From Candidatus Poribacteria bacterium (GTDB taxonomy: Bacteria; Poribacteria; WGA-4E; WGA-3G), in the NCBI GenBank assembly GCA_965197475.1, contig CBDANF010000002.1, positions 352,001 to 416,000 on the forward strand: a stretch of 64,000 nt of DNA, given 5' to 3'. This document shows positions 57,617-60,695 of this stretch, in pieces (position 1 is the first letter of the stretch; the number at the start of each line of letters is the position of its first letter). The notes under the pieces were generated by a model. It saw nothing but the letters and a program-made list of their open reading frames with translations. It had not been told where the DNA came from and made no database searches. The position numbers were made by a program, and so were the translations under genes.

Positions 57617-57724
57617 AAGATTAAGCGAACCTGTCCTTTCGTTAAGCTGCGGTTAGGTTAAACCAAAACGCGCGTAGGGATGCCCTCTTGCGTCATCACG
57701 TTTTATTTCCTACACTTGTGTTTA

Positions 57725-57813
57725 TCCCGAATTACCCATAATTATTTTATTCTTCTGGGTATTAGGCACGCTTAGAAAGCGCGCCTACCGAGTGAAATCA
57801 AGTTAATTTGGTA
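57725..57813. mobile_element. MITE family D copy (degenerate left end)
   Basis: Aligns with 42873-42961 and ends gcgcgcctaccgagtgaaatcaagttaatttggta. Confidence 0.7.
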
Positions 57814-57868
57814 ATAATTTACGCAATGAGTAGTTTTGGACTTGATAAATTTGAGAAAAATTTTTCAC

Positions 57869-57897
57869 TTGACAAAATCCTGCCAGTATAGTATCCT
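57869..57897 (+). promoter_or_regulatory. Inward-facing sigma70 promoter in the IS left end
   Basis: TTGACA-17 bp-TATCCT. Confidence 0.6.
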
Positions 57898-57905
57898 ATT
57901 AACAT

Positions 57906-57984
57906 CACGAATTTTGGTAGAGAATGTTAGCCGCGTCGCAAGGCGCGGTCTCTACCTCAACCGCCTAACATCGGAAAATTCGTG
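57906..57984 (+). ncRNA. Candidate structured RNA with pseudoknot and GCAA tetraloop
   Basis: Four helices of 10, 8, 7 and 7 bp tile the segment; it begins just after the promoter. Confidence 0.65.
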
Positions 57985-58097
57985 TGTGTGAATTCGTGAA
58001 TCAATGCAACACATTTCATATATTTTATGGACTCACACAATGGAGTCTTTGCATCTAAAACCCCATTGTGCTGTGTCCTATGCCAAAGGAGTTTAGG

Positions 58098-58560
58098 ATG
58101 CACAAAAAAGTTGGACCTGGTGGCGTTATTCTTAATCCTGTAAGCACACCACCGTGGGAATCACCAATAGATGAGGTTATAATACCTCCAGCATTGTCAC
58201 GTCCAGATGAATTTAAAACCAACTGGAAACAATTGTCGTTTTCATTCAAAGGTAGAATAAACCGAAAAGACTTTTGGATATATTTCTTAGGTACTGGTTT
58301 ATTATACATAACTTTTTGGGGCATTTTTGATATATACAGTAGGTGAAATTGCGTATTACGCTTTTATGATACCAATTAGTATCGTGAAATTCTTCTGGTG
58401 TGATAACGCTGTTATCGTGAAACGATGCCATGATTTTGGTAGATCTGCTTGGTATCTTATCCTATTTTACATACCTCCGATTGGTATAGTCATTTGGTTT
58501 ATGCTTGCTTTCAGTAAAGGTGATCCCGAACCAAACAAGTATGGCAACCCACCTAAATAA
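58098..58560 (+). pseudogene. DUF805 (YhaH-like) membrane protein, frameshifted at T5 58324-58328
   Basis: FSFKGRINRKDFW in frame 1; VKRCHDFGRSAW...KGDPEPNKYG in frame 2; AAGGAG RBS. Confidence 0.82.
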
Positions 58561-58569
58561 CCCAACAAC

Positions 58570-58588
58570 GAGGGGACTCTGTCCCCTC
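58570..58588 (+). terminator. Hairpin after the DUF805 gene
   Basis: gaggggac-tct-gtcccctc; no clear U tract. Confidence 0.4.
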
Positions 58589-58609
58589 TAACCACAAAGG
58601 AGAAATCCG

Positions 58610-58861
58610 ATGAATAATTTAGTCCAAGAACAACAAGGACAACTTCAACGAAAAGAAGATATTCAGAAAGGAGTAGCAGAACTTTTAATTACTCCACTTC
58701 TGGATGACCTTGAAAAAGCATATAACGATTTTAAAAGTAAAGATTTAAAATCTATCCATCAACTAACACAGGCTTTGAGTATATTTGTGAAAAAGACAAA
58801 TGAAATTAATTCACAAGTTAGTTATGTGAATAGTGTTCTTAATTATCTTTCACAGAATTAA
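58610..58861 (+). CDS. 83-aa helical hypothetical passenger protein
   Basis: AAGGAG RBS, ATG, amphipathic helical composition. Confidence 0.6.
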   Translation: MNNLVQEQQGQLQRKEDIQKGVAELLITPLLDDLEKAYNDFKSKDLKSIHQLTQALSIFVKKTNEINSQVSYVNSVLNYLSQN

Positions 58862-59024
58862 CCTTTTGACACATTTCATCAATAAGATGAAGACCTTTGT
58901 TAAGTCTTTTTGTGTCACCGATATTCGTTCTTTTTACTAAATCAGTCATAGGACCGCGTAGGAATTGGATATGTTGTTCTTTACTGCGTGGTCCTTCTTT
59001 TCTTACTTCAATTTGTTCACTCAT
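58839..59024 (-). CDS. 61-aa hypothetical protein coupled to the transposase
   Basis: ATGA overlap with the transposase stop. Confidence 0.45.
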   Translation of the reverse strand: MSEQIEVRKEGPRSKEQHIQFLRGPMTDLVKRTNIGDTKRLNKGLHLIDEMCQKVNSVKDN

Positions 59025-59901
59025 CTCATACTTTCATTGACAAACTTATCAAAGATGCTGTCAACGCTCCTATAGTTATACTTATAGCACGCTTCCGCCA
59101 CATATAGCGGTGTGTATCCTGTCTGATAGTGGTGATGACTTCCATACCAAGCGCGTTTGAGAAGCGACCAGAAGCCCTCAATCGTGTTCGTATGGACATC
59201 ACCCTCAGCAAACTGCACCTTGTGGTTGATAACAGCGTGCTTCATTTCTTTCCCAATAGCGTTGTAAGCCTGATATTCATCGGTTATTAGTTCCGATTTT
59301 TTAGGTTTACAGCACTCCGAATAAACTCAAGGATAGTGCGTCCTGTGAGGTTGTGTGCCACTTGTGCGACAACCCTACCTCCACGCTGCACTGCTCCTAT
59401 TATAGCAGTTTTTTCAGTGCCTCTGCCACGTTTATGTGGTTCATCATCTTCACGTTTGTTCTTTTTACGAGGTTTACCGCCAATATAGGTCTCATCTGCT
59501 TCAATGATACCTTGTAGTAAAGCCCCGCCTTTCTTCGCCATTTCAGCACGGATACGAGTCATTATAAACCATGCTGTCTTTTGATTCAAGTCTAAATCGC
59601 GCGCAAGTTGATGACTTGACAAACTTTTCTTCGCATTCGTTATCAACGAAATAGCTAAAAACCACTTCTGTAACACTACCTTTGTCCCGTGAAACACCGA
59701 CCTGCACGTCACCTTGAAACTCACTTGGCACTCGTGGCAGTTCCAACGACCGATACGACCGATCTTTGTCTCCTCACGCCTGCCCACATGACCGCTTTCA
59801 CAATGCGGACACACAGGTTTACCTCGCCAACGAATCTTCTCTAAATGCGAAATACAACTCTCTTGATCCGGGAAACGTTCCATCACCTTCAACAAATCCA
59901 T
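59021..59901 (-). pseudogene. IS1595 (ISXO2-like) transposase, frameshifted at 59297-59302
   Basis: Zn ribbon CPHC...CHEC, EADETYIGGK; one added A gives ELITDEY...HAVINH...HTNTIEGFWSLLKR. Confidence 0.9.
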
Positions 59902-59924
59902 CAGATAACTCCTTGAAATAGGAG

Positions 59925-60028
59925 TTGCTTTTTCTGACGGACTTCTGATACAATATCAGATAAGATTAAACCTTCAGAAAGCAACTCTGCTTTTTGGGTT
60001 AATTGGGAGGCTACAACCTCCCTTTTTT
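59925..60028 (+). ncRNA. Predicted antisense sRNA to the transposase leader (promoter plus terminator)
   Basis: TTGCTT-18 bp-TACAAT with TG extension (59925-59954); terminator gggagg-ctacaa-cctccc + T6 (60005-60028). Confidence 0.55.
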
Positions 60029-60037
60029 CTTATCTAT

Positions 60038-60066
60038 ATTATACCATATAAACCCAGTGGACACAA
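60038..60066 (-). promoter_or_regulatory. Transposase promoter
   Basis: Minus strand TTGTGT-17 bp-TATAAT with TG extension. Confidence 0.6.
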
Positions 60067-60695
60067 GGCTTTATAGCGATTTTTAAAATTTTTTATCAAG
60101 TCCAAAACTACTCATTGCGAAAAGTATAGTGAAAAGACAAACGACTGTCAAGAATAATCAGAAGCACCGCTATGCCAAAATGGGTGTCAAGTTTTTGGAA
60201 AAGTCTGTCTACCCTCATTGTAGGAAATTGCCAGAATTATCTCAGGGCTATTTAGTTTTCGATTTTTCTTGTAGTATTTATCACAAATGTTATTTTTTAT
60301 ACGATATGCAGATGTAGCACGACACGTAGCAGGTTTATAAGGTTTTGGCGAAAATTCGCACACCTCTTTATATGGCAAGATCAACGCTTCATTACCCGTC
60401 CTACAGTAGAAGAACACAACGCACACTTCTTAAATTGAGACCTAAATGACATAATTTCACACATAAGTCATTTGGCCATTTAAGACAAATCTGTTCAGTT
60501 TTCGGAAAATACCTTGATAGATGTGCTGGTTTATCCCATGTATGGCGTGAAAAGTTGGGCTATACATAGGTTGACACAGCACTGTAAGTAACCAATTTCA
60601 CAAAACAAACGTTAATAGTAGTAGATAAGCAGGATTCCAGCGTTTTTGAACATGGAAAGCTGGAAGTTAACGGTTTTAGAAAATTCAAGCGGACC

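Follow-up and report, generated by a model that had tools for sequence, protein, structure and literature searches.

A pseudoknotted RNA fold shared by unrelated mobile elements of Poribacteria and its probable role as a leader governing their expression

In insertion sequences (ISs), RNA structures that hide or expose a translation start keep the expression of selfish genes low, as in the RNA-IN/RNA-OUT pairing and fold-back inhibition of IS10 and the stem-loop in the 5' untranslated region of IS200. A choice between two pairing partners is known from the hok mRNA of the hok/sok system, whose 5' tac element has the alternative partners ucb and fbi. The DUF805 and DUF805b motifs of Rfam, in turn, lie upstream of DUF805 genes. 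Here we describe a structured RNA at positions 57906-57984 of a 64,000-nucleotide (nt) stretch of a Candidatus Poribacteria genome (assembly GCA_965197475.1, contig CBDANF010000002.1, positions 352,001 to 416,000 of the forward strand), which is referred to below as the window and to which all plain coordinates refer. Like the IS10 and IS200 regulators, it is an IS-borne RNA structure at the start of a transcript, and it shares with the DUF805 and DUF805b motifs a position upstream of a DUF805 gene; it differs from these motifs in having no match in Rfam and in that its link to DUF805 is incidental. The best explanation for it is a new family of ~80-nt knotted RNAs at the extreme 5' end of mobile-element transcripts in two families of sponge-associated Poribacteria, and the comparisons set out below suggest that the RNA probably governs the expression of the mobile elements that carry it.

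The fold sits directly after a promoter within a 2298-base-pair (bp) IS of the IS1595 family (57822-60119). This supports the preliminary description of this DNA, made from its letters alone, which had proposed that an IS-borne transcript begins with a functional, structured RNA. The four pairings named there are all present when read directly from the sequence, and one helix, P4, is added to them:

57906-57915 with 57975-57984, plus strand: helix P1, 10 bp, perfect
57916-57923 with 57949-57956, plus strand: helix P2, 8 bp, perfect
57931-57937 with 57942-57948, plus strand: helix P3, 7 bp with one G-U pair, loop GCAA
57924-57930 with 57965-57971, plus strand: pseudoknot of a 7-nt bulge with a loop, 7 bp, crossing P2
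57961-57963 with 57972-57974, plus strand: helix P4, CCG/CGG, 3 bp
57869-57874 (-35) and 57892-57897 (-10), plus strand: promoter TTGACA-17-TATCCT, sigma-70-type, 10 of 12 matches, directed into the IS

Since P4 presents the loop at 57965-57971, the fold is a three-way junction (P1, P2-P3 and P4) locked by the pseudoknot between bulge and loop. The nested helices of the window copy reach -37.9 kcal/mol with the pseudoknot excluded (z = -4.38), and none of 200 shuffles folds as well; the minus strand of the region folds more weakly (z = -3.36). An intrinsic terminator or attenuator was rejected: UGUGUG rather than a U-run stands directly 3' of P1, and no terminator-like site is predicted in 57700-58700. 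Likewise, ARAGORN finds no tRNA or tmRNA gene in 57700-58200.

The promoter had also been proposed earlier, with the fold starting about 9 nt behind it. The TTGACA-17-TATCCT site itself is borne out as the best of five promoter-like sites in our scan, while the distance from the -10 box to the start of P1 is 8 nt. From this promoter we infer a transcript start at about A57904, 2 nt before P1. By a rule-based criterion, a similar promoter, with its -10 box ending 4-12 nt before the fold, is found in 43 of 50 distinct copies, the set from which the counts of contexts and duplicated strands given below are also drawn. The stretch is further present in RNA libraries labelled as sponge metagenome: in four runs of one study, contigs span 57882-58519, joining the fold to the DUF805 gene, and cover further parts of the IS. 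These are Logan contigs of metatranscriptomes, which speak to presence rather than to RNA ends or levels and into which DNA may have been carried over, and we have not counted their uncovered stretches (e.g., 59602-59783) as evidence. The contigs of two runs start at 57932, within the P3 hairpin, a point that we ascribe to the assembly breaking at an inverted repeat rather than to an RNA end.

The same plan recurs in this genome in other sequences. MAFFT placed the helices of five in-genome variants out of register, and Infernal aligned the two most divergent variants poorly to a model built from three in-genome variants (R1); we therefore wrote a descriptor of structure only, with no sequence terms. 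In the 5.7-Mb genome it identifies 28 strong copies belonging to seven variants with almost no shared sequence, all of which display P1, P2, P3 and, between P2 and P3, a 7-nt bulge that pairs with the loop of a P4 hairpin:

V0 (the window type): 4 copies, bulge/loop ATGTTAG/CTAACAT
VA: 4 copies, bulge/loop ATGTTAC/GTAACAT
V0': 1 copy, bulge/loop CTGTTAG/CTAACAG
VB: 10 copies, bulge/loop TTTCTAT/ATAGAAA
VC: 6 copies, bulge/loop ATCTCAT/ATGAGAT
VG (2 copies) and VH (1 copy): found by the descriptor, outside IS1595 elements

V0 and VA, which are 86% identical over the element, differ in their helices by changes that compensate each other: T-A becomes C-G in P1, G-C becomes C-G in the pseudoknot, and CCG/CGG becomes CCA/TGG in P4. 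In related ISs of the genome, the left inverted repeat and the -35 box are kept, after which the sequences diverge completely and the same fold is rebuilt. The other 23 descriptor matches have low scores and, in most cases, a mismatch in the pseudoknot. The reversed genome, used as a control, yielded 30 matches, of which 11 are images of true copies and were removed by position; these arise because reversal combined with reverse complementation amounts to the complement, which keeps Watson-Crick folds. None of the 19 background matches left combines a score of 32 with a perfect 7-bp pseudoknot.

Comparison across genomes bears out this picture. R1 retrieved an alignment (A6) of 33 sequences from 31 genomes, in which 97.8% of the cells in paired columns hold standard pairs, as against 33-42% when the partners are slid by 1-3 columns. 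Changes on both sides are seen in 33 of 35 pairs, so that the helices are kept among homologues through compensatory changes, and none of 500 shuffles reaches any of these measures, a count that is not a probability, with kin in the alignment not being independent. A6 was fitted to the nested helices and is hence biased towards them, but the pseudoknot is absent from the model; even so, covariation extends to all seven pseudoknot pairs, with 98.7% of the pseudoknot cells paired. The pseudoknot that the preliminary description had read from one sequence is thus real. Without selection on the single-stranded fold, it would be difficult to account for one plan being realized in wholly different helix sequences, and the covariation together with the copies of same architecture and different sequence place it beyond chance. 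We regard the existence of the RNA family as almost certain.

What is conserved in this selected single-stranded structure is shape, along with a semi-conserved P2: a loose GGYAGR-like sequence persists in this helix alone, as against drift in P1, P3 and the pseudoknot. The variants have no conserved unpaired position in common; their P3 loops read GCAA, TCCTT, ACCTT, GCTT or TCCT, and the J2/4 linker varies in sequence and in length (1-4 nt). This bears on the possibility of a ligand-sensing riboswitch or of a self-cleaving ribozyme that trims the 5' end, the latter having been suggested in the preliminary description. Either would be compatible with a three-way junction that is compact, pseudoknotted and placed in a 5' leader, and P1 has an alternative partner (see below) as do the helices of expression platforms. 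However, junctions, loops and bulge are all variable, which leaves no candidate for a pocket or a catalytic core; riboswitch and ribozyme models give no match; and the genes downstream are unrelated selfish genes, or there are none. Accordingly, we consider both versions very improbable; the RNA antitoxin and the protein-binding leader that were suggested alongside the ribozyme stay candidates.

The same data speak to whether the feature acts as DNA, be it as a transposase-binding site, as a single-stranded DNA structure at the element end or as a chance palindrome in a repeat. The fold lies ~85 nt from the IS end and is copied with the IS, and elements of the IS200/IS605 type do use DNA hairpins. 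However, covariation in a pseudoknot would be meaningless in duplex DNA, folding is better for the plus strand than for the minus strand, and the G-U pairs are specific to one strand. Moreover, the fold occurs alike in DDE-type ISs, in TnpB elements and at GIY-YIG genes, at a fixed distance after the promoter, whereas transposase-only IS1595 relatives (1139 bp) in the same genome lack it. A DNA-level role is hence hardly credible; the last observation also implies that the fold is not needed for transposition of that subfamily.

The RNA is a previously undescribed family within the known general kind of structured mobile-element leaders. At the gathering score, none of the 4227 families of Rfam 15 matches anywhere in the window; at E≤10 the interval 57700-58200 gives two chance matches, both outside the element, and 20 further fold loci searched at E≤0.1 give no match on the fold. 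Membership in the DUF805 motifs, the c4-like RNAs or the ribozyme families, raised in the preliminary description, therefore finds no support, with no cmscan match on the element at any threshold tried. A motif named Poribacteria-1 is said to have come from Weinberg's work of 2017; if Rfam holds it, it does not match. Literature listings and abstracts revealed nothing on such an RNA in Poribacteria or in IS1595 or TnpB leaders, and a term search of the main text of Weinberg 2017 (PMC5737381) found mention of neither DUF805 nor Poribacteria.

Searches of related genomes with R1 recovered matches in 64 of 101 at E≤0.01. A second model (R2), built from A6, recovered 385 matches in 98 of 151 Poribacteria genomes at E≤0.001. 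By family, R2 matches are found in 81 of 99 genomes of family f1 and 16 of 26 of family f3; there are none in f2 (0/10), f4 (0/4) or f5-f9 (0/11), nor in five genomes of other phyla with related IS1595 elements (0/5), although this is weak evidence. A pattern scan of public metagenome and viral-contig collections, followed by R2, yielded 13 true copies among 93 candidate loci, six of them in contigs classed as viral. Because R1 and R2 miss the divergent VB and V0' with default filters, all these figures are lower bounds for the architecture.

The 50 distinct copies are distributed over unrelated genomic contexts as follows:

IS1595-type (inverted repeat upstream and/or transposase nearby): 21 of 50
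directly before a TnpB gene: 13 of 50
before a GIY-YIG gene: 6 of 50
other or unknown: 10 of 50

The TnpB genes were assigned by their Pfam OrfB_IS605 and Cas12f1-like TNB domains and the GIY-YIG domain likewise by Pfam. Among 20 further copies from high-copy families, nine stand at TnpB genes, six are of the IS1595 type and five are of other kinds, three of which resemble broken TnpB starts by eye. The fold thus moves between the unrelated element types IS1595, TnpB and GIY-YIG. In the ISs themselves, the passenger genes behind it vary with the variant, comprising DUF805, a 43-amino-acid basic protein, membrane proteins and unassigned open reading frames (ORFs). The specific tie to DUF805 that the preliminary description had entertained does not survive this comparison: the same fold stands before other passengers, TnpB, GIY-YIG or no gene at all, and so the DUF805 link of the window copy is incidental and the reading of the RNA as a DUF805 regulator is corrected.

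A second feature ties the fold to the sequence behind it, namely a further copy of the 3' strand of P1 (X'):

57991-57998 (block to 58002), plus strand: X'', second copy of X', AATTCGTG, then AATC, 6 nt after P1

In the window, X'' can replace 57977-57984 as the partner of the 5' strand of P1. Frequent rather than universal, X'' is present at 7/8 identities or better in 29 of the 50 copies, 5-9 nt 3' of P1; an interval further downstream gives 0 of 50, and the word of another family member 5 of 50. Each change in P1 is accompanied by one in X'', which is therefore tied to P1. For the P1 5' strand, by contrast, a downstream copy is no more frequent than in the control. Twelve of 13 TnpB contexts have a Shine-Dalgarno sequence as the spacer and the ATG within X'', a layout shared, as judged by eye, by nine further TnpB contexts. 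Over 33 leaders, closing of the 5' strand (X) on X' or on X'' differs by -6.4 to +6.6 kcal/mol under constrained folding that ignores the pseudoknot, and the two states are near iso-energetic.

Placed at the predicted start of the transcript, the RNA lends itself to a reading that we favor tentatively, with slightly more doubt than conviction: a leader at the 5' terminus that works in cis, has a bistable closing helix and acts as an expression governor of selfish genes. With its 5' end buried in P1, the transcript would be protected from decay that depends on a 5' end. The 5' strand might then close on either the proximal X' or the distal X''; given the spacer and ATG of the TnpB leaders, the start site would be open with the 5' strand on X' and concealed with it on X''. 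It would fall to the pseudoknot-locked core to set the balance between X' and X'', and a host factor could possibly read the shape of the core and the semi-conserved P2 helix. As an outcome, the module would serve as an expression governor for the selfish genes behind it.

Several observations weigh against this proposal. At GIY-YIG genes, X'' leaves the start codon uncovered, being placed ~10 nt 5' of the Shine-Dalgarno sequence, and the IS1595 contexts have no conserved ORF that begins at X''. Some ISs have the promoter and the fold and no passenger ORF; there, promoter, fold and a second hairpin motif point into the 3' end of the transposase gene. Tandem arrays of two to three units under one promoter, with an 84-nt period and neither ORF nor X'', occur in at least four genomes. 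The energies of the two closings ignore the pseudoknot, and the RNA-run evidence consists of contigs that may include DNA. Moreover, a simple hairpin suffices for 5' protection, and so the elaborate conserved shape implies a partner.

The arrays and the ORF-less ISs are a better fit to a free, trans-acting noncoding RNA, in which the ~80-nt unit would be the product itself, either sequestering a host or defence protein as a decoy or sponge or self-assembling through pairing of bulge and loop between molecules, as the phage phi29 pRNA does, and the downstream genes would be incidental. The semi-conserved P2 amid drifting P1, P3 and pseudoknot is likewise what a protein contact would be expected to leave, and covariation is blind to whether pairing takes place within or between molecules. 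Nevertheless, there are no terminator-like sites after the fold within 57700-58700; a TnpB or GIY-YIG ORF starts within ~35 nt in 19 of the 50 contexts; and the covariation of X'' with P1 argues for a link to the downstream sequence. We view a free RNA as unlikely but a serious contender. More speculatively, and again as something we doubt while taking it seriously, the leader could be a portable, sequence-programmable bistable riboregulator that selfish elements trade horizontally: its 5' strand would switch between X' as a decoy and X'' as the real site downstream, and its pseudoknot-locked core would be the receptor for a Poribacteria-specific factor linking selfish-gene expression to the state of the host; or else, with bulge and loop pairing between molecules, its units might self-assemble in the manner of phage phi29 pRNA. 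Either would, if true, constitute a new class of mobile-element RNA.

The elements themselves show additional regularities. The tandem-array loci (L138:758-1003, L139:786-1031, L247 and L248) adjoin an IS-like inverted repeat and have UUUUCAAGAAC-like linkers. In TnpB-type elements (L034, L039, L045, L046, L050 and L054), a conserved long hairpin with a T-run lies ~60-110 nt 5' of the fold, just before the promoter; this is the left-end hairpin of an IS200/IS605-type element or, alternatively, a terminator that insulates. A second recurrent leader motif, 3' of the fold, consists of a conserved core GTGCATAACGCAC, 6-10 nt and ACGCTATGCAC inside a longer hairpin (L009:255-315; L011, L030, L031, L032, L037, L041, L052, L053 and L058:3440-3500); it is often 5' of a 43-45-amino-acid basic protein and has no Rfam match.

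The IS that bears the window copy comprises the following parts:

57822-57849, plus strand: left terminal inverted repeat, 28 bp, a perfect match to 60092-60119
58098-58560, plus strand: DUF805 passenger gene, ATG at 58098, in two frames with a break at the T-run 58309-58313
58562-58603, plus strand: hairpin with 8-bp stem GAGGGGAC/GTCCCCTC, then AAAGGAGA, with a Shine-Dalgarno sequence
58610-58861, plus strand: second passenger ORF, 83 amino acids, no family assigned
59021-59901, minus strand: IS1595/ISXO2-like transposase, convergent with the RNA-led transcript
60092-60119, minus strand: right terminal inverted repeat, 28 bp

Four identical or nearly identical copies of this IS are present in the genome. 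The DUF805 gene reported downstream of the fold in the preliminary description is indeed there, although broken by one base in the T-run near 58313; its assignment comes from a Pfam DUF805 match on an intact, 95%-identical copy. Contigs of two of the four RNA runs are one base shorter at 58313, a difference that would join the two DUF805 frames. The transposase, whose nearest relatives (up to 90% identity) are found in Candidatus Poribacteria metagenome-assembled genomes, is split into 204 and 74 amino acids by a 1-nt gap in an A-run (~59287-59290) relative to an intact 293-amino-acid relative. Both genes of this IS type are hence broken by single-base homopolymer differences, in the T-run of DUF805 and the A-run of the transposase, which may be errors of long-read genome assembly or real.

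The hairpin and Shine-Dalgarno block at 58562-58603 directly precedes the last passenger ORF and is kept at 32-41 of 42 nt in all passenger-bearing IS1595 variants (also L009, L010, L011 and L013). It could be a site of processing or of protein binding, or else a barrier. If a barrier, it could be one to be read through, as would suit a further reading of the fold, namely as a processive antitermination or anti-Rho element that acts on its own polymerase in the manner of the HK022 put RNA and would let mobile-element transcripts pass terminators or escape silencing by Rho. A promoter-proximal position, residence in mobile elements and a requirement for shape only are all in line with this, but the fold resembles no Rfam family, X'' is left unexplained and the terminators to be passed are not predicted downstream in 57700-58700. 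We therefore hold antitermination to be improbable, and return to the cis-acting leader as the preferred reading.

The last passenger ORF of several IS variants (L009:971-1243, L010:521-892, L011:1032-1355 and L013:769-1041) encodes 90-123 amino acids with no Pfam match, apparently one small-protein family by eye; similar ORFs are seen near folds outside IS1595 elements (L031, L043 and the VG locus). On the opposite strand, the 5' leader of the transposase (59902-60020, minus strand) is nearly identical across IS variants with wholly different folds and carries hairpins of its own, e.g., GGAGGTTGTAGCCTCC. An RNA-OUT-type antisense to the transposase start was also considered and rejected: the longest complementary words are 6-8 nt, and an element's own leader does no better than that of another variant. 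Outside the IS, a ~100-bp repeat (57716-57818) adjoins its left end; with 68 BLAST matches over the three contigs of the genome, it looks like a dispersed element of the REP (repetitive extragenic palindrome) or MITE (miniature inverted-repeat transposable element) kind. A 965-bp element elsewhere (contig 3, 4003175-4004139; L012) has the same kind of terminal inverted repeats with neither transposase nor fold and is therefore MITE-like.

If confirmed, these findings would add a new, strongly covarying class of structured RNA that is common to three mechanistically unrelated kinds of selfish genes, among them the TnpB nucleases, which are used for genome editing. They would also mean that a common promoter-plus-leader cassette is exchanged among the mobile elements of an uncultivated phylum, and that a pseudoknotted three-way junction with a duplicated closing strand offers a compact natural design for the control of translation or RNA stability.

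Finally, the family can be compared with known systems. In architecture, the closest is the phi29 pRNA, which likewise has paired 5' and 3' ends, a three-way junction and a bulge that is complementary to, and covaries with, a hairpin loop, stands at a transcript start in a mobile genome and shows low sequence identity between relatives. However, the complementary stretches are 7 nt here and 4 nt there, the neighbors here are transposase, TnpB and GIY-YIG genes with no packaging motor nearby, and no Rfam family matched, including any pRNA model that Rfam holds. The HK022 put RNA and 5' stabilizer stem-loops of the ompA-leader type are similarly promoter-proximal and cis-acting, with shape placed over sequence, but they are without a pseudoknot and without a duplicated closing strand. 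The hok mRNA resembles the leader proposed here in its 5'-terminal strand with two partners of like sequence, the choice between which would decide translation; in our case there is neither an antisense RNA nor a toxin gene, and 5-9 nt separate the partners, which in hok occupy opposite ends of the mRNA; a pseudoknotted core lies between the strands. As for IS10 and IS200, their simple hairpins or antisense pairs are aimed at the transposase start, whereas the fold described here frequently lies on the other strand from the transposase and shows no complementarity to its start region; it is, moreover, a pseudoknotted three-way junction common to unrelated element types.
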